Virus record (IMG/VR): IMGVR_UViG_3300024261_000005
From: a virus
DNA length: 64,000 bases
Reading direction: 5' to 3' (one strand)
Each line of letters opens with the position of its first letter. The stretch's first letter is position 1. A program made the translations under genes and the position numbers. The notes under the pieces are model-generated. The model worked only from the letters and a program-made list of their open reading frames with translations, was not told the DNA's origin and did no database searches. Positions 3,141 through 64,000 of this stretch are shown piece after piece.

Positions 3141-3172
3141 ATTAAAAACTTTATATTGCAGGAGAGATTACC

Positions 3173-15009: not shown

Positions 15010-15031
15010 GACTATCTATACAGAACCCCAG

Positions 15032-16470: not shown

Positions 16471-16473
16471 TTT

Positions 16474-17106
16474 ATGAACGAATTACAACAGAAACTTCTT
16501 GCTGAGTTATTGGTTGATGACAATTTTGAATCCTGGAATTGTTTCGAGCCCAAGTATTTTGGTGCAGACAGTAGGACGTTGCCTTTCTTTAGTAATGTAG
16601 ATAAGCATACAGCGCTGCTGCTTATAAGCCAGCTAAGGCATCTCGAAGAGATGGAGCCCGAAAAGCCAATAACGATTATGCTTAATACACAAGGAGGTTC
16701 TCTTACAGACGGGCTAGCTATACATGACACAATTGTGCAGCTAGCTTGCCCTGTAATAGTTCATGCTTTAGGACTGTGTGCATCCGCCGGACTTCTGATC
16801 TTAAGCGCAGCAGACTATAGGGTTGCGTCGCCGAATACCACTTTTTATTATCATCAACCCGTAGTAGAAGACTTTATGATTAACAGCATGCAAAACATGA
16901 ACGAGTTAAACGACTATTACAGTAACTGCAAAGAAGTTACAGATGATATAATGAAGGCTAGAGCCAAGATAAAAAAGTCAACTTGGACAAAAAACTTTGA
17001 AGGAAAAACAAATTATTATTTTGATTCAGAGACGGCTTTATCATTCAACTTGATTGATAGCGTCACTGAAAGCAACAAACTCGATTACGAGATAGAAAAG
17101 AGTTAA
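16474..17106 (+). CDS. clpP: ClpP-family protease subunit
   Basis: LNTQGGS, GLCASAG (catalytic Ser), HQP (catalytic His), ALSFNLID. Confidence 0.88.
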   Translation: MNELQQKLLAELLVDDNFESWNCFEPKYFGADSRTLPFFSNVDKHTALLLISQLRHLEEMEPEKPITIMLNTQGGSLTDGLAIHDTIVQLACPVIVHALGLCASAGLLILSAADYRVASPNTTFYYHQPVVEDFMINSMQNMNELNDYYSNCKEVTDDIMKARAKIKKSTWTKNFEGKTNYYFDSETALSFNLIDSVTESNKLDYEIEKS

Positions 17107-17110
17107 GCCT

Positions 17111-17458
17111 ATGGCTTCTAGAGGAAGAGGTGCCAGAATTAAAGGTGCTACATTTGAGCGACAGCTAGCTAAATATTTTACTGACAATACAAGATTTGAA
17201 GCAAAGCGTGGCATCGGCCAAAGCCGGATGGGAGGCTCTGAGGTCAGCGATGTTGACATGCCAATCATCCACGTCGAAGCAAAGAGGCACAAGCGCTGCC
17301 ATATAAAATCAGCTCTGAAGCAGGCTATCGCAGATGCAAATATTAATGGAAAGATCCCTGTCGCCATAACGAAAGACGACAGAGAAGAGATATTGTGCAC
17401 TATGCTTATTGATGATTGGATACGGTTCTTCAATGCTTTTGTAGAGACTACTGAGTGA
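17111..17458 (+). CDS. Holliday junction resolvase (Hjc-like PD-(D/E)XK)
   Basis: KGATFERQLAK...SDV...HVEAKR, typical of phage/archaeal Hjc-type resolvases. Confidence 0.8.
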   Translation: MASRGRGARIKGATFERQLAKYFTDNTRFEAKRGIGQSRMGGSEVSDVDMPIIHVEAKRHKRCHIKSALKQAIADANINGKIPVAITKDDREEILCTMLIDDWIRFFNAFVETTE

Positions 17459-18132
17459 AAAACTCACTGTACATAACTGGCAACTTTTCATCTTTTGTTG
17501 AGAGTTATATTGATGCTAAAAACAACAAAGCATCAAATGCCATAATGTACTGTCTAAGCTCCCTAGGAGACTGCTTCTCAACCTGGGAGCAAGAGTTCAA
17601 CTCAAACGATTATCATAAAAACATAAATCTAGTTACGTTATATAAATTAATTGCCGCAGACAACAAGCCTGTAGCAACACTAGACTGGAAGATCAACACA
17701 TATAAAAGCTATTTAAACTTTTATAGTTTATCATTTAAAGATCATTTAATTGAATGCTTCTTAAAGCATATAGAAAAAGAAACGGTTGTATACTCAAATT
17801 ATAATAAAGAATATAAATTATTATACTTTCTCGCTAGAGAGATTAAATACAGCCTTTTTAAAATCATCAGACAGGCCTGTCAATTAAGTAAGCGCGACTA
17901 CACAACAAACAAAACATACACACTAACTAAACCTTCCTTCTACAAAGAGTCCTCTATAAATCTAGATTTATACTTTCTTTTTTTAAAAAATAGATTATTA
18001 TATTCAATAATTCTATCCATTATTTATGAGAACATTTCCTGGAAGGAAATCAAACAAAAATACGAGCTTTCAAACGCTCAGTTCAAAAAAATTAAAAACG
18101 AGGCACATCAATGGATAAGCAAAACGCTATAA
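17455..18132 (+). CDS. Hypothetical protein with C-terminal HTH (sigma-factor-like?)
   Basis: Helical, AT-rich ORF ending in SWKEIKQKYELSNAQFKKIKNEA, which resembles sigma region 4. Confidence 0.45.
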   Translation: MKNSLYITGNFSSFVESYIDAKNNKASNAIMYCLSSLGDCFSTWEQEFNSNDYHKNINLVTLYKLIAADNKPVATLDWKINTYKSYLNFYSLSFKDHLIECFLKHIEKETVVYSNYNKEYKLLYFLAREIKYSLFKIIRQACQLSKRDYTTNKTYTLTKPSFYKESSINLDLYFLFLKNRLLYSIILSIIYENISWKEIKQKYELSNAQFKKIKNEAHQWISKTL

Positions 18133-18605
18133 AACAACTAGGTAACAATCCTTCTGTTGCTCACCAGCAAGCGTTGGTTCAAAAATTAACTGGTTCAAAA
18201 ATTACCAAGCAACTCAAAATGATAATCCCAGGCGGAGCAAACCTAACTGAAGATATATCAAAAGATCAATTGTCCTCTGCTGTTTTCACTTGGTTGAGAA
18301 GATGTAGACATTTCAAGGATGTGACAATCTCTTTTCCTTCAGACTTAAACGAACTCTCTACTGAAGTGGCAGTCGTCGTTGATTTCAACCAGAACAGCAA
18401 GCTGCCCGAATGGGAGGTTCAAGGCAAGAAGTGGCTTTCTGAAAGAATTTCAGATGTACTTGCAATGGACAATGTCGTAGGTGTTAAAGTAGATAAGGCA
18501 GGGGTTCATGCGATACTTGACGCAGATCAATCCTTTTCTGCATCATCGTCCAACTGGGAACCACACTTAATCTTTACACCGAACAAACCTTCTGGAGGGT
18601 TTTAA
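18111..18605 (+). CDS. Hypothetical protein
   Basis: 164-aa ORF with a GAGG SD. Confidence 0.7.
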   Translation: MDKQNAIKQLGNNPSVAHQQALVQKLTGSKITKQLKMIIPGGANLTEDISKDQLSSAVFTWLRRCRHFKDVTISFPSDLNELSTEVAVVVDFNQNSKLPEWEVQGKKWLSERISDVLAMDNVVGVKVDKAGVHAILDADQSFSASSSNWEPHLIFTPNKPSGGF

Positions 18606-18606
18606 T

Positions 18607-18900
18607 ATGAGTCTATTTAAAGAGCGCGCGAACAACAATAAATTAGTGATTGCTTTGCGTAATGAAATTATTAATTATAAAAATCAAATAAAAGAACTGT
18701 CCGCTTCAGCTTCTTCAAATCTTAGTGAAAATCTAAGTTCTGAGCTGAACGCCTTGAAGAGCGAGCACTCCCAATGCATGGATATGCTTACCGAGCTTGA
18801 AGATCAACTTGTTAAGAATAAAGCTGAAATGAAAAAACTCAAATCAGAGAATACCCGGCTAAAGAAAAAAGCAGGATCTTCTGAGAATCAGGAGCAATAA
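18607..18900 (+). CDS. Hypothetical coiled-coil protein
   Basis: 97-aa heptad-rich ORF with a GGAGG SD. Confidence 0.7.
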   Translation: MSLFKERANNNKLVIALRNEIINYKNQIKELSASASSNLSENLSSELNALKSEHSQCMDMLTELEDQLVKNKAEMKKLKSENTRLKKKAGSSENQEQ

Positions 18901-18902
18901 CG

Positions 18903-18977
18903 ATGGCGTGTCAAAAATGCAAAGAAAAAGCCAAAAAGGCCTTAGAGAAACCACTTAAAGAAGCTAATCGACACTAG
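18903..18977 (+). CDS. Putative 24-aa CxxC microprotein (MACQKCKEKAKKALEKPLKEANRH)
   Basis: AGGAG SD at 18890-18894 with an 8-nt spacer; below the ORF-track size cutoff. Confidence 0.45.
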   Translation: MACQKCKEKAKKALEKPLKEANRH

Positions 18978-19191
18978 GTAAATCCTCTAGTATCGAAACT
19001 CTTTTTTCCAATGAACTTACAGTCTCATTGAGCACTGCAATTTCAGTAGTAAGCACAGTGATGATTTGTTGAACCTGATTAGTTGACGCCAAATTATTTT
19101 GAGCGGTGAATATATCTCTGATTCGCTCTTCAAGATTGGTTATTCTTCTTAATGTTCGCTGATCAAACTCAACATTAATATCAATAGCCAT
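18964..19191 (-). CDS. Small coiled-coil protein
   Basis: The likely start MAIDINV at 19191 has a GGAGG SD and a TAATG overlap with the upstream gene. Confidence 0.7.
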   Translation of the reverse strand: MAIDINVEFDQRTLRRITNLEERIRDIFTAQNNLASTNQVQQIITVLTTEIAVLNETVSSLEKRVSILEDLPSVD

Positions 19192-19532
19192 TACTGTCCT
19201 CCGTTCTGGAAGAAGGCGGCTATTAAACTTACAACTCCCCCACCCGCCGCTCCCCAAGTCAATTTTTCAGCTACACTAACCTTCACTTGAGTTAACTCGT
19301 CTTTATGCTTCGCTTCGCTTTTCTTTAAGTCGCGAACTTCAGACTCAAGCTTCTCAAGCTTTGTCTTCATCGACACCTGCTCTAACTCACTACGATTAAT
19401 CTTTTCTATTAATGTGTCAAGTCGATCTATCACTTTGGATATTTCCCGTTCGAAGTTCTTCTCAAGCTCGTTTAACCTAAACGCTATTATCTCAACATTA
19501 GGGAGATTCTCTTGTTCTTTTAAAATAGCCAT
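19191..19532 (-). CDS. Coiled-coil protein with C-terminal TM helix (XhlA/holin-like)
   Basis: Heptad region followed by LTWGAAGGGVVSLIAAFF; near the end of the late operon. Confidence 0.55.
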   Translation of the reverse strand: MAILKEQENLPNVEIIAFRLNELEKNFEREISKVIDRLDTLIEKINRSELEQVSMKTKLEKLESEVRDLKKSEAKHKDELTQVKVSVAEKLTWGAAGGGVVSLIAAFFQNGGQ

Positions 19533-19585: not shown

Positions 19586-22483
19586 TTATCCATAGTATGG
19601 CGCTACAATAACAGTAAAGCTTCTAAACGCCCCAAAGGAATCATAGCTACTTGGCGTGTCGGTCTCTATGAGCAATTCAGTTTTTACCGCCCACGTCCCT
19701 GTATGGTCGTTGCTCTGTAAAGAAAAGGAAGAATTACTTACTACAGGGACGTTAATGGACTGAAAAACAACGCTAGATGATTTAGTGTATTTGTACTCAG
19801 TTCCGCCTGGCGCTACTATGGTAATTTTATAATCATAACCCATTGCAATATTTGATTCTTTGAAAAAATTAAACTCCAGAAGAAAATCGTCGGGGTAATC
19901 TAGATAGATTCCTGAACTTGGGTTTATGGAAAAATACCCTATTGTTTCCGTTGAGCTCGTAATTGCATCTCCAGATGGCTTGTCGGAGTAGTAATTATCT
20001 TTTGTGTTGAAAATTATCGTCCCCCCTACTTTTCCAATGCCATCAGAGCCTGGAGTCCCTGCAGTCCCAGCGATCCCTGTGGGCCCTGGTGGGCCAGCCA
20101 CGCTCGATCCCTGCGGCCCTGGTGGGCCAGCCACGCTCGATCCCTGCGGCCCTTCAGGGCCCTGTGAACCTGTCGGACCAATATCACCTTGAGGTCCTGC
20201 GGGACCAATATCACCTTGTAAACCATAAATTGCTGACCAACCAGTAATGTTTTCATTAAAGCTTTCTGCTTGCAGAGCTTCTTGAGCTTCATACTTGAAG
20301 GAAGGTAGTTGGATTTTTATAGTAGGCAAATGCAAGTGAGTTGATTCTAGCATTCCTCTTTTCTCGTTAAGGTGCAATCCTGCAGCTGTGAGCAAAGCCT
20401 CAGTAAGTATTGCTTGCGCAAGTGCTCCTACTCCCATGTGAATAGGTAGGTAGGTGTTTGCAACCGCTAAGTTGGAGCCCAAAAGTGCTCTGCAAATTTC
20501 GTTCGCAACATTCCCTAAGCTAGCGCTTCTTGGTGAGTCATCTTTTGTGATAAATCCGACAGGGTTATTTAAAATCTTGTTCTTCAAGCCTACTAAAAGC
20601 TCTGAAGAGCTAGATAGACTTGTCACAATGGCTTCACTCATATCATAAAGTGTAACGTCTTGAAGAGCTGCCATCGCAATAGGAGCACTAATCGCAAATC
20701 TTCCATTTGGGTCTATGATTTCAGACATAGACTTCTTCATATAAGTATCACTCACGCATATGCCATAAGGATATTTTATACCGTTTGCTCGAAGAATTGG
20801 CTCTGGACAAATGTATATATTATCACCCACATTATATGGTCCCAGAATCATACATCTAGTATAACCACTATGTTGGACCTCATTGCCTATGCCGCTACTC
20901 ACACGAAACATTATTGCAGAGATGTGTTCTTGGTTGATGTTTCCAGTTAAATCATTGTTAACATCACTCTCAAAAATACTGCTCTCAGCATTGGTTGTCT
21001 CAGGAAGATATGATACATCACTTCTAGAGACTCCAAGCAAGTAATTCGGCTTGTATTCTAACTTCTTTATAGGTGTTCCGTTTACATTTTCTTCGTATAT
21101 TGAAGAGCATGCAGTTATTGCAAGCGGGTGATTCTCTTCTGGCGAAAGCATTTCGTTTTCAAGCACAGTCTTAGACGCACTTGGGTTTGTATTAAAAATA
21201 GTATCTACTATTGAAGTATCAAAGTTACTGTACACAGCATTTAGTGTGGGGTCTGTTATTAGATTAGGTGTGTTTTGCAAATTCCCGCTATATATAATAG
21301 TGGGAAATGTAGGATCTGTCTTTTCCTTTAGAGAAAGTCGGAAACTATCTACAAATACGAAGGGAATCGGTTTCAATCCACCTTCTACTTTTTCAGTTAA
21401 TTCGGGACTCGTTAAAGTATTGTTTACAATCGCTGGAGATGCTTTAGACCATAGCTCAGGCACGAATGATACAGCATTTAAATTAGATATGTTTCCTGCC
21501 AAACCACTATACCAGACATCATTTCCACCAAACTGCAACATAGCTCCAGGCCTATATCTGTTGGCTCCACTTTTGAAAAGATCAAAAATATCTTCAGATG
21601 TTGCACCACTGAACCCTCCAGTAACCCCAGTAGCGCTCCTCCAGGCATTGATAACACCATCCATGTCGTGGACATCAACCAAAGTTGATGTACCCCCTAA
21701 AAGCCCACCCAGCCTTTGCTGACTATCGCTTACAGGACCAGGAGACCACCTATTTTCTTCTTCATTCCATAGCAACGCATCGCCACTTACTGGAGGTGAG
21801 CTTTCCGTGTCTACGTCCGAGAGGTCGTTTAGCTCTATGTTCCATTCTAGATCAGGATAAGACTCTGTAGTATTATCCAGCCCAACTAAATCTTGATCAT
21901 CATGACCTACAGTCAGCTGCGTCAGAACCTCATAGACATGCTTAGAGACGGGCCACTTTTGTTTTACATATCCCTCTGCGCAGTCTAAAGGAAACGCATC
22001 ACCGAAACTATCTATCTTTAACCTATCAAGCATTTCATTTAAGCAAGTCAACTCGCTGTATATTGGTGCTAGATCTGCCGGATTCTCCCTTGACTCAATG
22101 ATACGGTCATTGAGACTTTCCCATAAGTATTGTAGTGATTCTTTAACCGTGCAAGGTCTTCCATCGACATCTGGATTCTCAGATGCAAACCAAAATACAG
22201 GCGAATTAAACTTATTGTTACCTAGTGCTTCTGGCCAGGTTTTGATTGTCATCCCAGACAGCCCATCTACAACAGCATCATAAGGGAATGTGGGTCGTGA
22301 ACAAAGCTCAAAGTAGCTTTGTACAATCACGTTATTCAAGTAAGCACCTACACTAGACAGGTCAGCTGCAACTCTTCGACTGTTTAAAGCAAAACTTTCT
22401 TTCAACTCAATGTTACTTATTTCAGTTGAGCTGATTTCTATTCTTTTATTTAAGTTATTTAAATAATTTGTTATGCCTGGCAT
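19586..22483 (-). CDS. Tail fibre-like virion protein with short collagen segment
   Basis: LNDLSDVD...GDALLWN...W fibre motif; Gly-X-Y stretch near the C-terminus followed by a beta-rich tip. Confidence 0.7.
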   Translation of the reverse strand: MPGITNYLNNLNKRIEISSTEISNIELKESFALNSRRVAADLSSVGAYLNNVIVQSYFELCSRPTFPYDAVVDGLSGMTIKTWPEALGNNKFNSPVFWFASENPDVDGRPCTVKESLQYLWESLNDRIIESRENPADLAPIYSELTCLNEMLDRLKIDSFGDAFPLDCAEGYVKQKWPVSKHVYEVLTQLTVGHDDQDLVGLDNTTESYPDLEWNIELNDLSDVDTESSPPVSGDALLWNEEENRWSPGPVSDSQQRLGGLLGGTSTLVDVHDMDGVINAWRSATGVTGGFSGATSEDIFDLFKSGANRYRPGAMLQFGGNDVWYSGLAGNISNLNAVSFVPELWSKASPAIVNNTLTSPELTEKVEGGLKPIPFVFVDSFRLSLKEKTDPTFPTIIYSGNLQNTPNLITDPTLNAVYSNFDTSIVDTIFNTNPSASKTVLENEMLSPEENHPLAITACSSIYEENVNGTPIKKLEYKPNYLLGVSRSDVSYLPETTNAESSIFESDVNNDLTGNINQEHISAIMFRVSSGIGNEVQHSGYTRCMILGPYNVGDNIYICPEPILRANGIKYPYGICVSDTYMKKSMSEIIDPNGRFAISAPIAMAALQDVTLYDMSEAIVTSLSSSSELLVGLKNKILNNPVGFITKDDSPRSASLGNVANEICRALLGSNLAVANTYLPIHMGVGALAQAILTEALLTAAGLHLNEKRGMLESTHLHLPTIKIQLPSFKYEAQEALQAESFNENITGWSAIYGLQGDIGPAGPQGDIGPTGSQGPEGPQGSSVAGPPGPQGSSVAGPPGPTGIAGTAGTPGSDGIGKVGGTIIFNTKDNYYSDKPSGDAITSSTETIGYFSINPSSGIYLDYPDDFLLEFNFFKESNIAMGYDYKITIVAPGGTEYKYTKSSSVVFQSINVPVVSNSSFSLQSNDHTGTWAVKTELLIETDTPSSYDSFGAFRSFTVIVAPYYG
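20082..20147 (-). repeat. Exact 33-bp tandem duplication (GPQGSSVAGPP x2)
   Basis: GGCCCTGGTGGGCCAGCCACGCTCGATCCCTGC occurs at 20082-20114 and 20115-20147. Confidence 0.95.
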
Positions 22484-52946: not shown

Positions 52947-55900
52947 TTAATCTCTCATCATTTTATTCATATAAGCGTTTCCTATTGGTCTTCTATTATC
53001 ATTAATGGTTAATGACGCTTGACCTCCAGAAGATACAAAATGCTTGCCCATGCTTTGGGCTGCTGATAGGTTGGGGGCTTCACCGAACATTCTAATTGAA
53101 CGATTCAATGATACAGTAGAGACTCCGCTATTAATAGGCCTTTCATAGAAATTGTCTGCGCCTGCAATCCTAGAGGGGCTTGGCTGCTTATGCTCTCTAG
53201 AGAAATTCTGCTGAACTGCTCTTTGGCTCAAGCTCTCTCCAGCTTTCAAAGCTTCTCTTGAAGTTCTGTCTGAAAACTTTGCACCTGGCTCTAAACTTCC
53301 TATCTCTTGATTGGCTCCAATAGCATAGGAGGCTAATAAGCCTCCAGCAATAACTCCAGCAAGACCCTTCCCTCTACTAATTGAAGCAGCAAGTGTTTGC
53401 TTTGCACTTTCAGCCCTGGTGAATATATCTTGCAATGCTTCTATATCACCAGTTATGAGACCACCTTCCATAGAATGCCCTCGATTCAATAACTGAAACA
53501 ATTGCTCATGACTGAACCGACTTGATGATTCCAGCATATTGCCAATTCCGCTGGATGAAGTAAACTTGTTCAAATTGTGTTTTTTAACATTTGCAGACAT
53601 CGCATCCCAAGAATCAAACATTTCTTGTACACTCAAGTTCACATTTTCAAGCCCTCTCTTGAAACTTGCAGTCGCATCCCCCTCAGCGATGTTATTAAAT
53701 TTAACACTACTCATCTTAATGCTTAGGTCTGCGTCTGGGCCTTCCAAAATAGTTCCTTTAAAGATCTTCTCTTGGAAGAAGCTTTTAATCGCACTGCCTT
53801 CTCCCGATTCAAAAGAAGTCTTTAATGCTGTCATATATTCTCTAGAAATATCAGCAGCAATTGGAAGCTTTTTACCTTTTATTCCAAGCACCTCTTGGGC
53901 AACTGATATCAATGCAGCTCCAGCTTTTATTCTTTTGAATTGATCTCCAAAATCTCCACCAGTATCGTCTGCAGCCGCCTGAGCTAACCCCAGCATACCG
54001 GCCTTAACCTGAACGTCGAGTCCACCGATACCCTTAACTATTTGCTCTTTTTGAAATTCATCAACTAGACTTTGTGCAAGTGTAAGTTTCGAAGCGCCCA
54101 TGCGCTCACCTAACTTCTCTACACCTTCGCCAAGTACGTGCATGCTGCTTAGAAACTCAGCGCCATAGGTTATCATCTTCTCGGGATTTACATGGCCTGC
54201 TGAAATCTTATTCCTAAGCGTCTTATCAGTGTCAAAGAAGACTTGATAAGGATCTGCGTCATAGTCACCAATACCGAATCTAGTAAAATCCATTCTTCCT
54301 GAATACTTCGATACAACTCCTGTAGCCTTGTTTTCAATATCCATGTCAAGTTCAATTTGTGGAAAGCGGATTGTACCACCACCATGCTCCCCGAACTCCT
54401 GATGTGCACCATACATCTTATGGAAGATCCTTCCAAAGGCGTCTTCAACGTCGGCGTTAGCCTCACCCCGGTTTATTTTTTGCTCAATCTCGGCTAAGTG
54501 AGAGCCCTTAGTCACGCTCCCTCCGTGGAATTCATCCAGAATTCTCAAATCCTTGTCAACGTATTCAGCACCTTGAAGTTTTTCTCCAGTGAATTCAGCA
54601 GCATCTTTAACGCTTGGGTGCTTTTCCATTTGAAGTCGTTCAACCTCACTAAGCTTCATATCTAAAGAATCTTCTCCCTTCAAATCTTTGATAGGAGCTA
54701 GAGTCTCCTTTATTTCAGCTTGCTCTGCTTGAAGTGCTTTTATTTTTTCGTCTCTTTTATGCAACTGACCATATGTTTTATCCTGGGGGTCGTGCATCCG
54801 ATTTAATTCAGCCTCAATCTCTCTATGCCTAATCCTATTTAAAAAGAAATCATCCTCAGGACTGACCTGTTCTCTTCCGAATCGAGGATTAACTACGCCT
54901 GTTAATTGCTCAAAAGCATTTATACGAGATACCTTCGGAGCAAATGCAATCCTGTCCTGGTTTGCCTCAATTGCTTTCGGACCTATTCCTTTCACTCTGG
55001 ATTGCAAATCATCAAATGATTTAAACTTCTCCTTTTTTCTTGCCGCTATTATATTATCTGCAACCTCAGAGCTTATAGCTTTTCCACGAGATGGTTTAAG
55101 AGTTTCTAAAAGCTGCTTTTTGCTAGCTTTGTTAATGTCGATTCTAGCATGTCTTGTAGAGGCAGCGCCTTTCACATCCTCAACATAGGTTCCATATTGA
55201 ATTCGTTCAATTTTTCTATTGAACTTTTCTTTCCCCTCCCCCCCCATTCTAGTGTTTAATCTCTCCACTTCGTTAGCTCGGTAAGTCTTGCCATTTGCGG
55301 AGCCTTCTTTTTCAAATGTCTCACCAAGCGCATCATTTATTTTATCAAACTGCGTAACTTGGTAAGTACTCCTCTGAGAGGTAAATCCCTCAGCATTCAA
55401 TCCGAAGAAGCTACCCATGCGATTTAAGAAGTGACTAGCTTCGTCCCTGTTCTCGAAGTATCTATAACGATAGTCTTTTTCATACTGAATAACGCCATCT
55501 ACCTTTAGGGGCACCTTTATCTTTCTACCCGTTGGGCCTGGCGCCATGGTCGTCTTCTCTTTTCTTTCACCAGCGAAATCCTTACCTAAATCATGCAAAG
55601 TCTCTTCATAGATCTCCTCTACTGATTTCTGTACATTTCCTAAAGATACGTCATCTCCACCGAGAATCTTCCTTCCATAATAGTCAACATTAAATTCATC
55701 TTTAGCCAATTGGCCCCTAACATCGTTTAATTGCTTCTCTTGCTTTTTCATCAGCTTGTTAAGCACCTCTAATTCTTCCTCTACTGCTTCCAATTTTCCT
55801 GGAGACTGTTTTAAGAGTGGGTCTCCACTTGTCATTGCGTTGTAAAGTCTACGCTGTTCTGACAATTCCCGCATCTCATCGCTGGCAAGTTTAGTCTCAA

Positions 55901-58900
55901 CTCCTCGTTTAGTGAGCCTCGTCTCGTCGATCTCGTCTATGAGCTTCCCTTCTCTGTGCAATCTTCGATTATGGGCATTGTCTAGTTCTCTGTCTAAGAC
56001 TCCCATCTTCCTTTGATCTCGCTCAATTGAATAGGAATCTCCCGCTTCCCCTTTATAGAGTGCTCTTTTTCTCTCCATGTATTGCTCATAACCACCCTGC
56101 TTGATTTCTCCTTTCTCTTGGTTCAAGAGTCGTCTATGCTCTCGATAGTTATCAAGCTCGTCACCCTGAAGCTTTTCGTACTCAGTTGAAATCTGATCTC
56201 TTCTATCATATATGTTGCTTCGTTTTTCTACAGTGTTGATTTTCTCATGATTTTCTAAGAGAGCATCTACTCTTGGCTGTTTAGCTAATTTTCGAACCTC
56301 TTTCAAATGAGCTTTATAGTCATCAGTACGCTCTTGCCCTGGCTTATTCCTTAAGAGTTCAAGTGGTTTTAATTTATCAGTAAAATCATACTGATACAAA
56401 CCCATACTAGCCCAAACGTGAGCGAAACCCATTAGCGGGTTTCTTATTGTAGTTCCAGAGGTGCCCGTCTTCTTCGCTCGATGCATCCCTAGGAAGAAGT
56501 CTTTTAAAGTTTGATTCATCAATTTTCTTGACTCTTCCTTGACGGAGGTGCTTCCTTGCTGAGTTAGGTGTTTACTCAGAGCGGACTCATATTTTGTCAT
56601 TCCGTCAAGGAACGCCTGCTGATCTAGAAAGGCGACGTAGCCTTTCTCTTGATTTACTACCTCAGTTAAACTTCGGTTTATCTTGGCATTAATAAAAAGA
56701 TTGTCGCTGAAAACAGTACCTTCCATATGCTTACCAGGGGTTTTCCCTAAGGTGAACCCACCACCCATGTAAGACCCAGAGCCAGTCACTCGACCTGACA
56801 AGCTGTGTTTCACTGCAGCGCCTGCAACTTTACTTAAAGACTTCCGAACAGTGGCAAAGCCTTTCATTGCGCTGTCAATTTGATCCGCATCTTCTCCTGC
56901 GTCTTTGAGACCAGATAAAGACGACAATAAGTCGGTTACATTACGACCGTACTCCGCCTCTATCTTTATAGTCTCTTGTGATGATTTTATTTCATGTCCA
57001 ATAAACCCTTTAAAAGTGTCTTCTCCAGGTAGGAAAATCTCCTTCTTGCCTCCAGTTTGTTCATATAACTTACTCAAGGCATCTTTGGAAAGTCCCATAT
57101 CCTCTAGATTTATTATGTTGCCGCTTTTAACTTCAGAGAGTTTGCTTACTACCTGCCTTTCTTCTCCTTGTCCTAGTTCAAGTAAGTTAGTCACTTCTTC
57201 ACGAGACATCGTTCTTACGTCTTTCAATCCTGATATCTGCTCTTGAATGTTTTCAGCACTCGCTTGGCCTAAAGATTCTTGAGCCACTTTCATACCAATA
57301 AGACCAGAAGCCCTATCTTCGAATCCCTCCATCCTCATCATATATGAGGAAAGGTAACCTGTTGCTTCTTTGCTATCCATCCCCCAAAAACCCCTAAGTG
57401 AGGTGTAAAGATAGTTTGCGAATCTGGGCTCAGCTTTAGCTGTATTCCTTGCAAGATTCGTATGGGGTGTGCCAGCGGTAGCGGAGGCTGCGCCAATCAC
57501 AACTCCTTGTTTAGCCATCTCGCCAGTCTTTTTTAAGTAATTGTCGGCCTCTGCTCCAGTAATTCCAGCAGTTTCCAAACCTGCTTTAATTTTATTCTGA
57601 AAATATTCCAAATCCATTCCATGTTTGCTGTTAACTGCTCTATCGTGAGCGAGAGATAATACTAAGCCAAAGTTATCTGCAGATATCCCCTCCTTACCTG
57701 CTCTCTCTGCAATAGTTTCAAAGAACTTACCTAACGTGCCTGCTTCTCTCTGCTTAACTGTTGCTTGATCTAAGCTTGTAATTGTAGCACCCTTCAGACG
57801 ACTGTTTACTTCAGCTAGTAGCTTGTCACCATCATTAGTAGCCTCTAGTTGTTTCATTAAGATGTCTTCATCCATACCTAGCATTCTCATACCACCGTGA
57901 ATTTGCGTCCTAAGATAAGTTCCAGATTTTTCAACTTGGGCTGTCGTTGTTAATAGCGTATTCGCTATTTTACCACCGAATCTACTTGGATCAAAAAATG
58001 CCTCCCCTACGTCTTCTAAGCCTAGGCTACTTAATTTATTAATCATACTTCTTTGGCTTATCGTCAACGTAGTGTCTTTTGCTAAAGCTGAAAACAATTT
58101 ACTATGAGACACGTCTTGTTCAATCTTACCAATAATGTGATAGCGATCTCTGTTTGTCTCCATGCTCTTTTCACTTAAGCCCAAGGTGAAGCGACGTAGG
58201 CCTTGGTGCTTTTTAATATGTACCACCCTGTCATCTTGTCTACCCAGAACAGCACGTCCCTCTGAATCTCCAAATTGCTTAAAGAAATCGTCAATGTCAA
58301 AGTCATCTCCATCAATCGTACTACCAATAGTTAAAAACTTCTGCGTATCGTCTCTTCTTGCTTCTAAAAGCTTAGTCATTAATTTGCTTTGACCAAGACC
58401 CTCTCTATTCACAGTCTTGCTTATATCCTGCTTCACTTGAATAGTACCGCCCATGTAGCTCATACCTTCGGCAAGGCCAAGCTTTGCTGTATTCTCGCGA
58501 CCTTTGAAAAGCATTATTGCCCCCATATTAACTCCACGGGCATGCTTTCCAAGCTTAGCGTCGCTGGTTACCCCAATTAATTCTGATCCCGTGCCACTAA
58601 CTTTAATGCCACCCCCAGCAGGAATACCCGCTTTATAAGCGGCTATCTCTTTTTGTTTCTTCTTTAATTTACTTCTTTCCCAGAACGGATTGGGCGCGGA
58701 CGCCACTCTACTTTCCAACAGTTCCTCTTCCTTAACAAGCTTTGCTAAGTGCGCTTTTTCCTGCATCACTTTAACACGACTTCTTTGTCCAAAAGTAGAG
58801 TCAGGGGTGCTACCATCAAAGCCAGTTGCCACTTCGGGACGTCCATGAAGCTGAGACCCACGCGCAGTTTGTGGAAGCAAACTCCTATCAAGATGCCCAT

Positions 58901-60389
58901 AGCGTTGCATCAAATTGAATGCTGTGGGAGTCAAATCGCCACTCTTTGTTCGCAATGATTCAACATGACCAACGACACGGGTTCTATTAAGATCAAATGG
59001 ATCTACAAATCTAGAGGTTAAAGTTTGCGCACCTGAAGTACCCCCGTAACCTTCCTGTGTGTACTGCAGTATAGCTTTAGTTACTTGTTCTCTATCTTTG
59101 GCTGCAAAATGTTCTAGTCCTGCAATCTTATGTATATTGGACTGCAAGGTTCTGGAAGATGCAATTGCAGATTGCAAATCTTGATCGATTAGCGAGACTA
59201 CCTTACCGTTCACAGTTCTAGTTTCATTCAAACCTTCCATCATTGCTCTGGGTGCTTCAATGGACATTGATCTAATATAATCGTTGTATTGATTTATATT
59301 TCTAGTACTAAAATTCTGTAGTGATGTTCTGTTTTCTCTTAGTAATTGGAACAAGTGGTCTTCTAATGAAACGGTGGCTTTCTTAATTGCGTCGTCTGCA
59401 CTTATTCCTCCTGGTCTAGATAATCTCTTCAAATCCAGTTCAGGGAATAACTTGGTGGCGTCAATAACACCACCAGCTGTTTGGTATCTTGTTGATAAAT
59501 TTTCAGTTCCCCTGATAATTTTAGCACCAGTTTCTCCGTGTTCTTGCAAGTCCAATGCTACATTCTGATATCTGCCTCCAGCATGCTGTATTCGAGCATA
59601 TACTGAAAGCTGCCCGCTCGTTTTTGCTTTGCCACCAAACTCATCAATTGAAACAAGGCTAATATTCTTAGCACCAGGAACCATATTTTTAAGTTCAGCA
59701 AACTTCTTCTTCCCAACAACAGACAGGCTGTCTTCCCTAGCAGACTTCCAGCTTACTGTACTTGTTCCTTCAGCTGTAAAGTCTTTCATGACGGAGTCGA
59801 ATTGACCTCTAGTCTTTAATGCGGAACTATGCTGCCTTTTAAAGGCTTCAAGCCTTGGGCCACTTGTCTCTATGTTTTGCTTATAGAACTGTATCGCCGT
59901 ATTCTTATCGTTCTCCTCAATAGTGCCCCCTTTGCCTACACCCTCATAAAGGTTTTCAATTGATGCTTTTAAGCTACTAGAGTCATCTACTAGCTCATCA
60001 CTAGCACTATCAAATAGCGCTGATAAGAACGCTCGCGCACCTTCTGCATCACCCCCCTGCTTAAATAACTCCTCTAACTTATCGTCACTTAGTATAGTAG
60101 TTTTAAACTTCTCTAGACTGGTTCTCTTGCTGGCGTCGAGTATAGCTTTTAATTCATCTGCGTCGCTTCTGAGGGCACGTCCAGCAGCACCAAGCTCATT
60201 GCCTGATGCGGAGGAGTTTTTTAAAACTCCATATGTTTTTTTAACTCCACCAGTTAAGTTTATGTTCTTGTTCAGGTAATACGCCGTTCCAGCAACAGCA
60301 ACACCGCTAAGTAGCGTTCGCCCACTATTCCTTATTTCCTGTTTTTCATTCTCTCTAGTTTGCTCATTTAACAGATTTATTAGTGACAT
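52947..60389 (-). CDS. Giant virion protein, candidate single-chain two-barrel RNA polymerase with ComEA-like HhH domain
   Basis: 2480 aa; RFP 34 aa before DYDAD; upstream K-x6-K pair; IDINKAS...KGIGPK HhH domain. Confidence 0.6.
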   Translation of the reverse strand: MSLINLLNEQTRENEKQEIRNSGRTLLSGVAVAGTAYYLNKNINLTGGVKKTYGVLKNSSASGNELGAAGRALRSDADELKAILDASKRTSLEKFKTTILSDDKLEELFKQGGDAEGARAFLSALFDSASDELVDDSSSLKASIENLYEGVGKGGTIEENDKNTAIQFYKQNIETSGPRLEAFKRQHSSALKTRGQFDSVMKDFTAEGTSTVSWKSAREDSLSVVGKKKFAELKNMVPGAKNISLVSIDEFGGKAKTSGQLSVYARIQHAGGRYQNVALDLQEHGETGAKIIRGTENLSTRYQTAGGVIDATKLFPELDLKRLSRPGGISADDAIKKATVSLEDHLFQLLRENRTSLQNFSTRNINQYNDYIRSMSIEAPRAMMEGLNETRTVNGKVVSLIDQDLQSAIASSRTLQSNIHKIAGLEHFAAKDREQVTKAILQYTQEGYGGTSGAQTLTSRFVDPFDLNRTRVVGHVESLRTKSGDLTPTAFNLMQRYGHLDRSLLPQTARGSQLHGRPEVATGFDGSTPDSTFGQRSRVKVMQEKAHLAKLVKEEELLESRVASAPNPFWERSKLKKKQKEIAAYKAGIPAGGGIKVSGTGSELIGVTSDAKLGKHARGVNMGAIMLFKGRENTAKLGLAEGMSYMGGTIQVKQDISKTVNREGLGQSKLMTKLLEARRDDTQKFLTIGSTIDGDDFDIDDFFKQFGDSEGRAVLGRQDDRVVHIKKHQGLRRFTLGLSEKSMETNRDRYHIIGKIEQDVSHSKLFSALAKDTTLTISQRSMINKLSSLGLEDVGEAFFDPSRFGGKIANTLLTTTAQVEKSGTYLRTQIHGGMRMLGMDEDILMKQLEATNDGDKLLAEVNSRLKGATITSLDQATVKQREAGTLGKFFETIAERAGKEGISADNFGLVLSLAHDRAVNSKHGMDLEYFQNKIKAGLETAGITGAEADNYLKKTGEMAKQGVVIGAASATAGTPHTNLARNTAKAEPRFANYLYTSLRGFWGMDSKEATGYLSSYMMRMEGFEDRASGLIGMKVAQESLGQASAENIQEQISGLKDVRTMSREEVTNLLELGQGEERQVVSKLSEVKSGNIINLEDMGLSKDALSKLYEQTGGKKEIFLPGEDTFKGFIGHEIKSSQETIKIEAEYGRNVTDLLSSLSGLKDAGEDADQIDSAMKGFATVRKSLSKVAGAAVKHSLSGRVTGSGSYMGGGFTLGKTPGKHMEGTVFSDNLFINAKINRSLTEVVNQEKGYVAFLDQQAFLDGMTKYESALSKHLTQQGSTSVKEESRKLMNQTLKDFFLGMHRAKKTGTSGTTIRNPLMGFAHVWASMGLYQYDFTDKLKPLELLRNKPGQERTDDYKAHLKEVRKLAKQPRVDALLENHEKINTVEKRSNIYDRRDQISTEYEKLQGDELDNYREHRRLLNQEKGEIKQGGYEQYMERKRALYKGEAGDSYSIERDQRKMGVLDRELDNAHNRRLHREGKLIDEIDETRLTKRGVETKLASDEMRELSEQRRLYNAMTSGDPLLKQSPGKLEAVEEELEVLNKLMKKQEKQLNDVRGQLAKDEFNVDYYGRKILGGDDVSLGNVQKSVEEIYEETLHDLGKDFAGERKEKTTMAPGPTGRKIKVPLKVDGVIQYEKDYRYRYFENRDEASHFLNRMGSFFGLNAEGFTSQRSTYQVTQFDKINDALGETFEKEGSANGKTYRANEVERLNTRMGGEGKEKFNRKIERIQYGTYVEDVKGAASTRHARIDINKASKKQLLETLKPSRGKAISSEVADNIIAARKKEKFKSFDDLQSRVKGIGPKAIEANQDRIAFAPKVSRINAFEQLTGVVNPRFGREQVSPEDDFFLNRIRHREIEAELNRMHDPQDKTYGQLHKRDEKIKALQAEQAEIKETLAPIKDLKGEDSLDMKLSEVERLQMEKHPSVKDAAEFTGEKLQGAEYVDKDLRILDEFHGGSVTKGSHLAEIEQKINRGEANADVEDAFGRIFHKMYGAHQEFGEHGGGTIRFPQIELDMDIENKATGVVSKYSGRMDFTRFGIGDYDADPYQVFFDTDKTLRNKISAGHVNPEKMITYGAEFLSSMHVLGEGVEKLGERMGASKLTLAQSLVDEFQKEQIVKGIGGLDVQVKAGMLGLAQAAADDTGGDFGDQFKRIKAGAALISVAQEVLGIKGKKLPIAADISREYMTALKTSFESGEGSAIKSFFQEKIFKGTILEGPDADLSIKMSSVKFNNIAEGDATASFKRGLENVNLSVQEMFDSWDAMSANVKKHNLNKFTSSSGIGNMLESSSRFSHEQLFQLLNRGHSMEGGLITGDIEALQDIFTRAESAKQTLAASISRGKGLAGVIAGGLLASYAIGANQEIGSLEPGAKFSDRTSREALKAGESLSQRAVQQNFSREHKQPSPSRIAGADNFYERPINSGVSTVSLNRSIRMFGEAPNLSAAQSMGKHFVSSGGQASLTINDNRRPIGNAYMNKMMRD

Positions 60390-60394
60390 ATTAT

Positions 60395-63300
60395 CTAACC
60401 TCTTATAGCTAAGCTTAACATTGAAAGAATTTCAGAACTTCTATCATCATTATAATATATTTCTGCTCTACTATTCTCATATGGAGCATGAGAAGTATTA
60501 ACAAGCATTCTACTAAAATCCAGTCCAGTGGAATTTTTCATTCCTCGCACCAGTCTATTTCTAGCGGAGTTTCTGGACGGACCTGGGTTTTCGTACATAA
60601 ACATGTCAGAACCTTCTAAGAATGGACGCCTGGACGCTCTACGCACCTGTGAGTTCCATACGTCATAGTCATGCGTTTCGGCACCACTGTTATCTATGTA
60701 CTTGACTTTCACATCTTCCATGTCAACGTCTTTGTGCCATCCGATCCAGTCAGGTGGCGGCAAGGGCTGGTTTATAAAATGGTCTTCGACCTCAGAAAGT
60801 TTATCGAACATGTAGTTCTGATCTATTGAGCCTTTTGGATCTGCACCTATTAGAGACATCTTCTCGCCAGAATCCATCCGATTCCACACAGAGGTATATA
60901 AATGCTTCTGATCTTCAGGCACTAACTCTAATATTCTTTCTCGATCTTTTCCAGATGCATTCGCAAACGAATCAAAGAAGCGCTTCTCCGCATTAGGTAG
61001 CGACAAATAAAGCCCTAGAGCGTCTCCATTTGGGTTGACGCCAGTCCTGGTTTGACCAGCCATACGCATATAACGTGTTTTGTCATTTGCGTTTTCTGCA
61101 TTCTGAGCTAGCTTCATGTATTTTAAAAATTGTAATTTATCGAAATGCTCGTCCAGTTCTTCTCTTTTTTGAACGTGCATTGGTTTTCCATCCCAGCCCA
61201 TTAAATTCGCAGCGCTATAAAATGCTGGTCGGAACCAATCCCTTACATGCTTGTCCCAAAATGCATTAGTAGTCCCATATATTCTCTCTTGTTCATAAGT
61301 CTCAATTGCAGAGCGAGTTCTACCCAGTAGCTTCTGAGTAGGCCTGAAGCCGCCTGGCATTAAGTATTCAACTGGAGCAGTAACTTTTCGAATTATAGAT
61401 TCTGCACCTTGATACATTGATTTCGTTATGTCAGAAACCACGGGTATCTTGATCGCATTCTTGGCGTAATCAAAATCTCTCGTTGAAGCTAGTCGTTTTT
61501 GATGTGCCTCTGATGCATTGTCCAGTATCCTGTTTTCAAGCTCCGTCGTTAAGCCTGCAGCTCTTCGCTCCATAAGTTGATTTCGAAGCCGCATAGTCTC
61601 TCTGGACTTAGATGATAAATCAGATAGTATTTTATACTTGTGTACGTCTGGGTAGTCTTCAGGATCCATTCCCTTTAACTCAGGATTTAAAGCCTCGTAT
61701 GCCTTTCCTGGCATTCTTGCGAACCCGTTTGGTATCGACCTGTAAGGGTCGCCCCTCTTGTAGCGTGCTGGCATCCAAGATGGCATTGTATTAGCGATTG
61801 GATTGTACTTTTCGATATCTGATCTTGGTCTAGGAAGCATTCGCCTTATAGGCTCTGAGGTGAATGCCATGCCACCAAGATCCATATCCCAATAATCTAA
61901 AATTGCAGAGTCCATATCGGACGAACTAGCCATCATGAATTCTCTAGTACCAACAGTCTCTCTTCCTGTTACTAATTTTTGTAAATAGTTTTTAGTGTAC
62001 CCAGTGAGGCCTTCAATCTCTCTAAATTGATATTGCATACCCCCAATCATTGAAGTCATTGAATATGGACTTTTAGGGGTGCCTGGACCTATTTGACCAA
62101 GATCTGAACTTGAACCAAACTCTTGTAAAAATGCTGTCTCTCTCACTCCTCCTGAATTTATTTGCGACAGTTCTTCTTCATGCATTAACTTCGGTGGCTT
62201 TATTATCCTGCCAATAGTATTTGAAAGTATCCCTCCTAGGACGGGGACGTCTTCAAATGCAGCACCTGAAATTGGATAAGGCCTATCGTAATAGTTCTTC
62301 TCTTCAAGATGGTAAGTGAAGTTCTTCAAGAAAAATCTAGTTAATGGTGAATGCTCATCGGTTTCATCCCCCCAGACAGCTCTTTCTTTTGCTTGGGTCA
62401 TTAAGGATACGTATGCGTGCGGTCTAAAATAACTTGTTTCGTTTCCCTCTAACGGGGTTCCACCACCTTCCCACCAGCGACCCTTTTTAATTTCAACTAA
62501 TTTCTTTCCTGAATAAATCTCTTTTAATTCATCAGGATTCTCCATCGTACCTAACAACCCTCCTGTTAGGAGTTGGTGTGCTCCAGCGACGCCTAAGAAT
62601 AACGCGCCAAATCTCCTAAAGATTGGCGAGGCATTTAACCCCTTGGCAAACTCATCATAAGTCTTAGTAACCTCGTCTCCACCTATGTTTCTAGTTACTT
62701 CCCCTTTCATGGATGCGCCGAAAAACGAATGATATATCTCTGCGCCAAAGATCTCAGTTCGCCTTAACATATTATCAAGTAGAGATCCGCCTTGATATTT
62801 ATTATTTATAATTTCAATTCTATCAAGTAGAGATCTATTTAGATCATTCTTATTATGGTATTCATCGAAAAAGGCTGATCCGACTTTAGCATCCATGGAG
62901 TAATTGAAGTCTAGTATCCTTTTTTCAATTTCAGAAGTATCGGTTATACCTGCACCTTTAAAAAGATCTTTATTTTTGTTAAAGAAATTCATTAAATCTT
63001 TTGTTTGCGTTTTACTGAGATCGGCCTTCCCTTTTCCATCCAAGATGTCATTCACTCGACGAGTGTAGTCCATATACTGTGGGGAAGTTTCGGAAATACC
63101 ACCTAGTTCTTTGGCCAGTGGATTGTATTTTTGAAATGTTTCGTTAAACTCCCCGCCAATCTTAACTGGCGTTAAGGCATCGTATACCTCGCTAGCATTT
63201 ATTTGAGCTTTTGTTAATGGAATCTTTATATCCCCTGAAGCACCACTAACAAAGCCAACCCGATCTTTAACTAGCTGTGGAAGCAATTTACTTGCGAACT

Positions 63301-64000
63301 CATCAACTTGAGTCAAGTTGCTTGCAGCACTTCTCTTCAGGAAGTTCTGTCCATACCCCTTGTACGAAAGCGCAGCAACACCTAATCCTAAAAACAGACT
63401 AGTAGAGGTATCTGTGAATCCCGGAAGCACACCCTCTATACCTCGCTTGAGATAGGACATCCCTGTGATTTGCCCAAGGTAAGATCTGCCAACATCTACA
63501 TTTACTGCTGTAGTGGCAAGCCCTTCGATAACACCTTTGTCAAATCCTGGCATTAGCATTTGTGCTAAGAATGCAGCACCACCAACTTTCATTGGAGCGA
63601 TCTTTGGACTGCCTTTCGCCATCTTACTGTACAGATAGCCAACTCCAGCAGCAACTCCAGCAGAAGCAACTGCATTCCCACCAAGACCATAATTCCTTCT
63701 ATAGTGGTCTATAGTTTGCAACCCTATAGCTGCTGCACCAATTTTACTTGCCTTGTAGCCTATTTCAAAGAACTGCTTATAAAACGGTCCAGGCTTCGTG
63801 GAGAGACCCAGACCTGTAGCTTCCCCAAAGTCTCCTAGTACTTTTCCAAAAACTGGTATCTGTTCTTTCGTTGCTGATATCAGCCTATTAAATCTGTTGA
63901 GTCCTGTTGAAAGGTAAGCTGTTGCAAGCGAGGTGCGTCTTCTCAAATCGCCAAGCGTTGAGAAGGCTCCTCTTGTTGAAGCTACCAGACCTAAGCGCTC
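60395..64000 (-). CDS. Large virion protein (tape-measure/ejection-like), 5' end outside the window
   Basis: The frame stays open from 63946 to 64000 (ERLGLVASTRGAFSTLGD...), so the true start is beyond the window; Gly/Ala-rich hydrophobic helices. Confidence 0.65.
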   Translation of the reverse strand, partial: ERLGLVASTRGAFSTLGDLRRRTSLATAYLSTGLNRFNRLISATKEQIPVFGKVLGDFGEATGLGLSTKPGPFYKQFFEIGYKASKIGAAAIGLQTIDHYRRNYGLGGNAVASAGVAAGVGYLYSKMAKGSPKIAPMKVGGAAFLAQMLMPGFDKGVIEGLATTAVNVDVGRSYLGQITGMSYLKRGIEGVLPGFTDTSTSLFLGLGVAALSYKGYGQNFLKRSAASNLTQVDEFASKLLPQLVKDRVGFVSGASGDIKIPLTKAQINASEVYDALTPVKIGGEFNETFQKYNPLAKELGGISETSPQYMDYTRRVNDILDGKGKADLSKTQTKDLMNFFNKNKDLFKGAGITDTSEIEKRILDFNYSMDAKVGSAFFDEYHNKNDLNRSLLDRIEIINNKYQGGSLLDNMLRRTEIFGAEIYHSFFGASMKGEVTRNIGGDEVTKTYDEFAKGLNASPIFRRFGALFLGVAGAHQLLTGGLLGTMENPDELKEIYSGKKLVEIKKGRWWEGGGTPLEGNETSYFRPHAYVSLMTQAKERAVWGDETDEHSPLTRFFLKNFTYHLEEKNYYDRPYPISGAAFEDVPVLGGILSNTIGRIIKPPKLMHEEELSQINSGGVRETAFLQEFGSSSDLGQIGPGTPKSPYSMTSMIGGMQYQFREIEGLTGYTKNYLQKLVTGRETVGTREFMMASSSDMDSAILDYWDMDLGGMAFTSEPIRRMLPRPRSDIEKYNPIANTMPSWMPARYKRGDPYRSIPNGFARMPGKAYEALNPELKGMDPEDYPDVHKYKILSDLSSKSRETMRLRNQLMERRAAGLTTELENRILDNASEAHQKRLASTRDFDYAKNAIKIPVVSDITKSMYQGAESIIRKVTAPVEYLMPGGFRPTQKLLGRTRSAIETYEQERIYGTTNAFWDKHVRDWFRPAFYSAANLMGWDGKPMHVQKREELDEHFDKLQFLKYMKLAQNAENANDKTRYMRMAGQTRTGVNPNGDALGLYLSLPNAEKRFFDSFANASGKDRERILELVPEDQKHLYTSVWNRMDSGEKMSLIGADPKGSIDQNYMFDKLSEVEDHFINQPLPPPDWIGWHKDVDMEDVKVKYIDNSGAETHDYDVWNSQVRRASRRPFLEGSDMFMYENPGPSRNSARNRLVRGMKNSTGLDFSRMLVNTSHAPYENSRAEIYYNDDRSSEILSMLSLAIRG

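Follow-up and report, generated by a model that had tools for sequence, protein, structure and literature searches.

A giant protein encoded in the tail gene module of an uncultured marine phage with a contractile tail is very probably the cellular RNA polymerase (RNAP) core in a one-piece, highly diverged version. The protein, called P0001 here, is the product of a single long open reading frame (ORF) of 2480 residues among tail genes on the minus strand of a 64,000-nucleotide stretch of DNA from this phage (IMG/VR record IMGVR_UViG_3300024261_000005), which is referred to at its full length as the window. We read the family to which P0001 belongs as a previously undescribed sequence family of single-chain two-barrel RNAPs, and consider it likely, with real room for doubt, that P0001 is a free-standing virion RNAP of this class, delivered by the virion. 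An initial annotation made from the nucleotide sequence had proposed a fused two-barrel RNAP, highly diverged and with the beta-like barrel preceding the other. This proposal is upheld by the conservation of an aspartate triad and of basic residues, by the predicted topology of a double-psi beta-barrel (DPBB), by colinear structural matches and by a borderline profile alignment to the beta' subunit.

Conserved residues of the P0001 family

The initial annotation had picked out four short motifs in P0001, i.e. GDYDAD with the presumed catalytic aspartates, RFP upstream of it, SKLFSALAKDT with two lysines, and GLAEGM, and a script check found all of them exactly at the positions given there (Table 1). 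SKLFSALAKDT, which is separated from the aspartate triad by about 1271 residues, resembles the motif DK[MF]A[GS]RHG[NQ]KG of beta and Rpb2 subunits, a likeness seen at the level of the motif. By chance a protein of the length of P0001 is expected to contain roughly 0.5 motifs of the type DxDxD (an estimate). Since the occurrence of DxDxD in P0001 is thus within chance, conservation rather than the motif itself has to serve as evidence. A second DxDxD, DFDID at residues 696–700 (window positions 58290–58304), was rejected as active site because homologues read DYDID, DYNID, DMSID or have no such motif at this place. It matches the catalytic motif of gp66 from phi14:2, a phage of the crAss-like kind, letter for letter, which is fortuitous and could mislead an annotation based on motifs.

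Sixteen homologues of 1814 to 3046 residues, from marine and aquatic metagenomes and on contigs of up to about 162 kb, were found by a word-indexed search. Invariant in 17 homologues are lysines 764 and 771, the residues G638, L639, E641 and G642, the sequence R1316-N-P1318 and H1324, as well as G2041, D2042, A2045, D2046, Q2049 and D2053, and D2044 is conserved in at least 90% of them. An exhaustive search of a library of 1.84 billion proteins with a profile of the C-terminal region yielded 82 representative clusters (50% identity), 52 of them at E ≤1e-10. Almost all matches spanning the triad region share the consensus GGGxxx[FY]P, about 30 residues, and IGD[FYWM]D[GA]D-x-[YWF]-Q. Alanine and glycine alternate at the fourth position of the triad across the family, and the canonical GDFDGD occurs in distant members of about 1700 residues. 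Across some 80 clusters of metagenomic proteins D2042 and D2046 do not vary, and D2044 hardly does. When 42 sequences were aligned, reaching down to about 20% identity, only five columns remained invariant (P1318, D2042, D2044, D2046 and E2115), with R1316 nearly invariant. For the N-terminal domain 46 sequences could be compared: position 764 is lysine in all of them, position 771 lysine in 42 and arginine in four, position 821 lysine in 44 and arginine in two, and R989 is invariant. Further conserved positions are found in the helices following the second barrel (K2114, E2115, K2119, D2125, E2166, K2171 and K2173). An invariant triad combined with invariant basic residues is the pattern typical of a catalytic centre under selection. 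With the triad and K764 invariant in 42 to 46 sequences and lysine or arginine at position 771, the conservation of DxDxD and of both lysines on which the initial annotation had staked its case was borne out.

The sole family member found among 185,579 species genomes (25% identity, E 5e-22) is encoded on the 111,807-bp contig PBLS01000003.1 of a metagenome-assembled genome labelled Magnetovibrio sp. Probably a contig of a phage ended up in this assembly by binning, or it is a prophage; it gives a weak hint to the host at best. Searches with P0001 and the related proteins P0056 and P0089 by tblastn against 50,697 GenBank phage records gave zero matches, and no paper describing the family was found in a full-text literature search.

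The same data bear on the possibility that P0001 is an inactive structural protein of the tail lumen or the ejection apparatus, similar to a tape-measure protein and derived from or resembling an RNAP, in which metal binding or a structural task would fall to the acidic loop. Such a protein would explain the giant size and the tape-measure locus, as well as a coiled-coil-like middle part which varies in length as it does in tape-measure proteins; also, all RNAP fold matches described below lie in the twilight zone, and the catalytic loop of crAss gp66 is inactive in the crystal. It would not explain why three aspartates, the flanking glycine and, in the other barrel, two or three basic residues do not vary between very divergent lineages, why distant members keep the canonical GDFDGD, and why a helix-hairpin-helix (HhH) DNA-binding domain is present, and we regard it as improbable.

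Predicted fold and comparison with RNA polymerases

Two structural models were calculated with AlphaFold2 (AF2), both on the homologue P0011, which is 38–40% identical to P0001. Model 2, comprising residues 1160–1600 of P0011 and based on 42 sequences, gave a predicted local distance difference test score (pLDDT) of 87.8 and a predicted template modelling score (pTM) of 0.85, and was mapped onto P0001. Its first part consists of a strand (residues 1310–1317 of P0001) ending with R-N, followed by P1318, a second strand (1325–1333), helices and an insertion. The second part has a short strand (2007–2008) followed by F-P, two strands (2013–2019 and 2025–2032), a helix (2035–2038), the triad (2042–2046) and a last strand (2047–2052). 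The predicted order, beta-beta-alpha-beta occurring twice, is that of a DPBB in which the triad takes the place of NADFDGD in beta', and in the model the barrel, called DPBB-A, is split by the insertion between strands two and three. The strand and helix order of the model supports a DPBB around the triad, as the initial annotation had presupposed. The spacing from the proline to the first aspartate is 32 residues in P0001 as compared to 33 in E. coli beta'. Long conserved helices (residues 2070–2174) follow the barrel and lie inside the span which was aligned to beta' through the trigger-loop region.

Model 1 comprises residues 524–1680 of P0011 with both putative barrels in one chain and is based on 17 sequences. 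About 15 of the top 50 Foldseek rows from the PDB for its N-terminal beta-rich domain were second-largest subunits of RNAPs; matches included vaccinia Rpo132 (prob 0.72), Thermus beta, Rpb2, the corresponding subunits of Pol III and Pol IV, and plastid and archaeal B subunits. In BFVD, RNAP subunits of pox- and mimiviruses were matched with a prob of up to 0.89, as was an uncharacterised family member from an uncultured phage (E 1e-14). In structure searches the linker matched clamp regions of Rpb1 and the triad region matched beta' and A190, and in a VIA re-alignment of model 2 only the largest subunits of RNAPs aligned over the entire model. These matches are weak, and they come from independent searches and libraries. 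Along the chain they run from RNAP beta over the clamp to beta', which fits the order expected for a fused RNAP. When model 2 was used in Foldseek searches of the PDB, in a wide VIA search and in the ESM Atlas fold search, the matches were dominated by a helical hairpin, and an ESM Atlas feature search gave nothing usable. With model 1, some proteins of cultured phages scored above the annotated RNAP subunits in BFVD, i.e. A0A172Q0S6 and A0A172Q021 of Acinetobacter phage vB_AbaM_ME3 and a protein of Microcystis phage LMM01, as did A0A8S5SD80, labelled "minor tail protein", from an uncultured siphovirus. The cultured-phage proteins could be remote relatives; the genome of phage ME3 gave zero profile matches to the triad domain.

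On the level of sequence, Pfam recognises a ComEA-type HhH domain (HHH_3) and no RNAP domain in P0001, PHROGs give nothing, and phmmer against PDB sequences gave nothing useful. A profile of the family run against all PDB sequences produced four matches, all of them non-significant. Two of these were beta' of the RNAP of phage AR9 (PDB 7S00/7S01, the non-virion enzyme; E 0.8), the only RNAP which the profile picked, with a colinear alignment placing QRNP on NRNPT and IGDFDAD on SGDYDGD. The full-length family profile gave only coiled-coil noise with PDB sequences. For profile-profile comparison a proteobacterial beta' profile (segment 300–560) was built from metagenome loci; it is of low diversity (Neff about 2). 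Using hhalign the whole triad-domain profile aligned colinearly with it over 201 columns, covering beta' residues 318–545, at an E-value of 0.029. In this alignment FLGM..GVS...RNP falls on LLGKRVDYSGRSVIxVGP, the insertion on a helical segment of beta', and xFP...IGDYDAD on RAP...NADFDGD. When the insertion was cut out, the E-value was 0.0058 and RNP was placed on RAP. Offered all 1407 residues of RpoC, hhalign chose exactly the barrel containing NADFDGD as the best local alignment.

It is very improbable that there is no relationship to RNAPs at all, in which case DxDxD and the lysines would have been kept for some unrelated task and noise would account for the matches to RNAPs. The matches are strongly enriched in RNAP subunits, which occur in the right order along the chain and in independent searches and libraries, hhalign selects the NADFDGD barrel from the whole of RpoC, and the profile search selects AR9 beta'.

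Several observations weigh against P0001 being a virion RNAP. The hhalign comparisons with beta' reach no more than borderline E-values, and each of the two runs matches a different R-x-P of P0001 to R425-A-P of beta'. The N-terminal domain aligned to E. coli RpoB at an E-value of 0.51, with K764 and K771 not falling on K1065 and K1073. Comparison with the crAss gp66 family, for which an alignment was built from 80 IMG/VR loci, showed no similarity (Prob 0.1–0.3%). Model 1 had a pLDDT of 66, with values below 50 in the triad segment, and the conserved helices after the barrel can be taken only as a candidate region for the bridge helix and the trigger loop. Residue R2008 of the RFP motif is not conserved, other members having tyrosine, histidine, leucine or phenylalanine. 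The family member P0015 (2778 residues) reads GDFVAD, with the middle aspartate changed to valine, which may reflect an error in sequencing or a copy that is inactive by nature. Finally, it is only the position of its gene which suggests that P0001 is packaged and injected. A likeness to phi14:2 gp66, which the initial annotation had drawn upon, was thus absent from the profile comparison (Prob below 1%). The negative comparisons with gp66 and RpoB agree with the published remark that families of two-barrel RNAPs share little beyond the triad (PMC10770324).

Two candidates exist for the arginine of the catalytic barrel. Topology, spacing and the alignment with gp66 favour R2008-F-P, conservation favours R1316-N-P1318. 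A filter for two-barrel RNAPs, [RK]xPx{20,100}DxDxD (Chaban et al., Supplementary Data 4; PMC10770324), selects P0001 alone in the window, by R2008-F-P, 31 residues and DYDAD. The R-F-P described initially 34 residues before the triad is therefore present and passes the filter, but its arginine is not conserved, and the conserved R-x-P is R1316-N-P1318 on the far side of an insertion of about 650 residues. The two elements flanking the insertion, R1316-N-P1318 and the triad, are 141 residues apart even in the shortest member. The description of DYDAD as non-canonical also stands in part: the alanine is there, but alanine at the fourth position is not very exotic, since known RNAP families vary, with triads such as DVDID, DQDPD, DNDKD and DNDGD (Chaban et al., Supplementary Data 4; PMC10770324).

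The region from about residue 1340 to about 1995 is regarded as an insertion because its length varies from 73 to 1303 residues among homologues; in P0011 (1814 residues) a short insert occurs naturally. Of the residues in the insertion of P0001, 37% are charged. The HHH_3 domain located in it was found in six of 42 family members scanned and probably holds the enzyme on DNA. Taken together, the beta-like barrel (about residues 590–980) would supply the basic residues K764 and K771, the helical connector (about 1018–1199) would take the role of a clamp, and the beta'-like barrel, split by the charged helical insertion with its probable DNA hold, would carry the magnesium-binding triad D2042/D2044/D2046.

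Table 1. Features of the P0001 gene and its neighbours, with positions in the window
Feature	Position	Strand	Remarks
Whole ORF P0001, 2480 residues	52947..60389	-	Candidate single-chain two-barrel RNAP; 16 close homologues, 82 representative clusters
N-terminal region, residues 1-590	58620..60389	-	Kept in close family (N1 hidden Markov model, HMM); no assigned fold
Beta-rich domain, residues ~590-980	57450..58622	-	Candidate beta-like barrel (DPBB-B) and surroundings
GLAEGM, residues 638-643	58461..58478	-	Family consensus G-L-x-E-G
SKLFSALAKDT, residues 763-773	58071..58103	-	K764/K771; family motif K-x-F-[SG]-x3-[KR]-x-T
Helical bundle between barrels, residues ~1018-1199	56793..57338	-	Candidate clamp/connector element
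DPBB-A first half	56391..56462	-	Predicted strands 1310-1317 and 1325-1333 (AF2 model 2); conserved R1316-N-P1318, H1324
Insertion in DPBB-A, residues ~1340-2000	54390..56372	-	Variable length, highly charged, mostly helical
ComEA-type HHH_3 (HhH, DNA-binding) in insertion, residues 1749-1814	54948..55145	-	Pfam PF12836, E 2e-9, above curated cut-off
DPBB-A second half, residues 2003-2052	54234..54383	-	GGG, short strand to R2008-F-P2010, two strands, short helix, triad, last strand (predicted)
RFP, residues 2008-2010	54360..54368	-	34 residues before D2042
GDYDAD, residues 2041-2046	54252..54269	-	Candidate Mg-binding catalytic triad D2042/D2044/D2046; distant members GDFDGD
Helical region after barrel, residues ~2057-2260	53610..54221	-	Conserved; candidate bridge-helix/trigger-loop region
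C-terminal module, residues 2340-2480	52950..53372	-	Conserved; C2 HMM matches nearly all family members
Upstream neighbour, 1464 residues in full	60395..64000	-	Cut by window end; first of giant-gene trio; no known family
Downstream neighbour, 3287 residues	43082..52945	-	Tape-measure/ejection-type; lytic domain, four hydrophobic helices; phrog_20474 "endolysin", E 1e-43

Gene neighbourhood and proposed delivery by the virion

The plus strand of the window carries a module for replication, encoding DNA polymerase, primase-helicase and nucleases, the minus strand tail fibres and a baseplate J-like gene. The P0001 gene is located between tube-like and chaperone-size genes on one side and baseplate genes on the other, i.e. 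at the tape-measure locus of the tail module. Its stop codon TAA lies 1 nucleotide before the ATG of the downstream gene, which is read in a different frame (junction TAATATG). The 3287-residue product of that gene, which also matches phrog_8809, is probably the real tape-measure or ejection protein of the tail. The initial annotation had placed P0001 between two giant virion proteins rich in membrane helices. Giant flanks were indeed found on both sides (1464 and 3287 residues), but clear hydrophobic helices, four in number, occur only in the 3287-residue protein. P0001 itself has one Gly/Ala-rich hydrophobic segment (residues 2342–2360, Kyte-Doolittle 1.37) in its C-terminal module.

The arrangement of a gene for about 1400 residues, the RNAP-like gene and a gene for about 3000–3300 residues with a Peptidase_M23 domain, followed by small baseplate genes, is conserved. 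It was seen in four further loci (L095 to L098, on the contigs of P0089 and P0056), where the RNAP-like proteins are only about 20–25% identical. As its gene is the central member of a translationally coupled trio of giant genes that occupies the tape-measure position, P0001 is most likely loaded into the virion and delivered with the DNA. Further upstream, partly beyond the window, three tube-like paralogues and two small genes precede the gene for the 1464-residue protein (locus L001). The paralogues, of 590, 313 and 156 residues, are located at positions 748–3944 of this locus, 3.9–7 kb past the window end, and all match phrog_9206, "major head protein". In the window four intergenic gaps of at least 40 bp are found.

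Complete relatives, one of them a genome of 161,781 bp with terminal repeats, contain one copy of the family each, and no Pfam match to beta, beta' or sigma70 was found in them. The relative of 161,781 bp (G001, IMG/VR UViG_3300020385_000005) encodes on its minus strand at positions 12977–19513 (L181) an ORF of 2179 residues with the sequence FGRTPNQG followed after about 100 residues by CGDNDGD, and with an HHH_3 domain of its own (E 6.6e-6). This ORF gave no match to HMMs of the P0001 family, no Pfam RNAP match and no significant hhalign match to the crAss family. By its motifs it is a candidate for a second, early-region two-barrel RNAP.

An active two-barrel RNAP encoded in the structural operon might also be synthesised during infection, for instance to serve middle or late genes, and never be packaged. 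The single weak hydrophobic segment of P0001 would suit such an enzyme, and as relatives encode another candidate RNAP in their early region, transcription may be split between the two, either of which could be the packaged one. The position between a gene for about 1400 residues and a peptidase- and tape-measure-type gene for about 3000–3300 residues, upstream of the baseplate genes, is however kept strictly even below 25% identity, and the genes are translationally coupled. A polymerase made together with late structural proteins would suit only the early genes of the next infection, and P23-45 gp96 and crAss gp66 are precedents for packaging. An unpackaged enzyme is therefore an unlikely solution, although it is the least unlikely of the alternatives weighed here.

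For P0001 as a virion RNAP we infer catalytic activity, a DNA template and a role in the expression of early genes. The protein would become part of the virion, reach the cell together with the DNA or before it, and there transcribe the first genes of the phage independently of the host polymerase. Among the genes transcribed first could be the one for the early-region second polymerase, as in P23-45. A more far-reaching scheme, which we offer tentatively and think more likely to fail than to hold in full, combines these elements. The three giant proteins would form an ejection machine in the tail lumen, with a free-standing two-barrel RNAP in the middle, in which the HhH insertion replaces the clamp as the grip on DNA. 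This enzyme would pass in a threaded state through the contractile tail, transcribe the genome as it enters, perhaps helping to pull it in, and switch on the second polymerase (2175–2179 residues, GDNDGD, unrelated in sequence). The result would be a host-independent cascade of two polymerases in widespread marine phages of about 130–160 kb, evolved apart from P23-45 and the jumbo phages.

Relation to known single-chain and virion RNA polymerases

To our knowledge, delivery of a two-barrel RNAP by the virion has been proven in few phage groups only, i.e. the jumbo phages of the PhiKZ/AR9 type, crAss-like phages and Thermus phages of the P23-45 type. The P0001 family has no detectable sequence similarity to these proven enzymes and is invisible as an RNAP to Pfam and PHROGs. 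It is not rare, as its 82 clusters include complete marine genomes of about 160 kb. If P0001 is active, bringing an own polymerase of the cellular type through the tail would be a strategy that recurs among large phages with contractile tails, and the label "tape measure" or "hypothetical giant" would be wrong for many genes. RNAPs would then tolerate insertions of up to 1,300 residues in their catalytic barrel, and a new, very divergent outgroup would be available for reconstructing RNAP evolution.

The closest parallel is gp96 of phage P23-45, a two-barrel RNAP fused to the tape-measure protein which acts as virion RNAP (Chaban et al. 2024, PMC10770324). Like gp96 and its homologues in P74-26, G20c and TSP4, P0001 is a single-chain two-barrel candidate at the tape-measure position of a long-tailed phage, with tape-measure sequence bearing a peptidase and membrane segments beside it (in gp96 fused to it), and is recognised by its conserved DxDxD, while similarity to known RNAPs is undetectable in the rest of the sequence. 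In P23-45 the virion RNAP gp96 transcribes the gene of the non-virion RNAP gp64 (PMC10770324), and P0001 is likewise paired with a second, non-virion RNAP candidate, found in the relative G001. In contrast to gp96, P0001 is a separate ORF, not fused to its 3287-residue neighbour, and belongs to a phage with a contractile tail; its barrel is split by the insertion of 73–1300 residues with an HhH domain, and it has DYDAD instead of DFDGD. Sequence and profile searches of a PDB copy with P0001 gave no significant RNAP, the presence of gp96 in that copy being unchecked.

The second parallel is gp66 of phi14:2, a virion-packaged single-chain two-barrel RNAP of about 2200 residues with DFDID as triad (Drobysheva et al., bioRxiv 10.1101/2020.03.07.982082; PDB 6VR4). 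It shares with P0001 the giant single chain, a residue other than glycine at the fourth triad position, the location among genes of giant virion proteins and a sequence mostly without recognisable homologues. Unlike P0001 it is a capsid cargo of a podovirus-type crAss phage, has a canonical R-I-P 36 residues before the triad, and lacks a large insertion in the barrel. By analogy, P0001 may work like gp96 and gp66, being a member of neither family.

QDE-1, the RNA-dependent RNA polymerases of eukaryotes (RDRs) and the YonO-type enzymes of SPbeta resemble P0001 in having both barrels in one chain, the beta-like before the beta'-like one, and in the triad context G-D-[YF]-D-[GA]-D, after which come an aromatic residue and a strand. 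They differ from it in their size of about 800–1400 residues, in lying outside virions and tail modules, in the missing insertion and in showing no detectable sequence similarity to P0001. As the superfamily includes QDE-1, which has both RNA-dependent and DNA-dependent RNA polymerase activity, and the archaeal DNA polymerase PolD, a two-barrel polymerase of another specificity delivered with the genome has also to be considered, be it RNA-dependent like QDE-1, primase-like, or a DNA polymerase like PolD. This has a low probability, lower than that of an inactive structural protein: DNA polymerase, primase-helicase and nucleases are already encoded on the other strand of the window, the structural matches are RNAP subunits and not PolD, and the phage precedents are DNA-dependent RNAPs.

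The virion RNAPs of the jumbo phages PhiKZ and AR9 are two-barrel enzymes delivered by the virion as well, but unlike P0001 they consist of four or five polypeptides, are clear homologues of cellular beta and beta' and are recognised by Pfam. The virion RNAP of phage N4 is likewise giant, and is packaged and injected for early genes; it is, unlike P0001, a T7-like right-hand polymerase with an unrelated fold.

Other ORFs of the window were also looked at. The 1196-residue ORF at positions 3173–6763 on the plus strand was rejected as a second RNAP, as its DADID is found in a Ser/Thr/Gly-rich, fibre-like context without R-x-P. It has no Pfam or PHROG match and is more likely a fibre than an enzyme. 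Two collagen-like tail-fibre genes are located at 432–3140 (plus strand) and 19586–22483 (minus strand). The former has a local GC content of 0.54, as compared to about 0.38–0.42 elsewhere, and matches dozens of PHROGs of collagen-repeat fibres.

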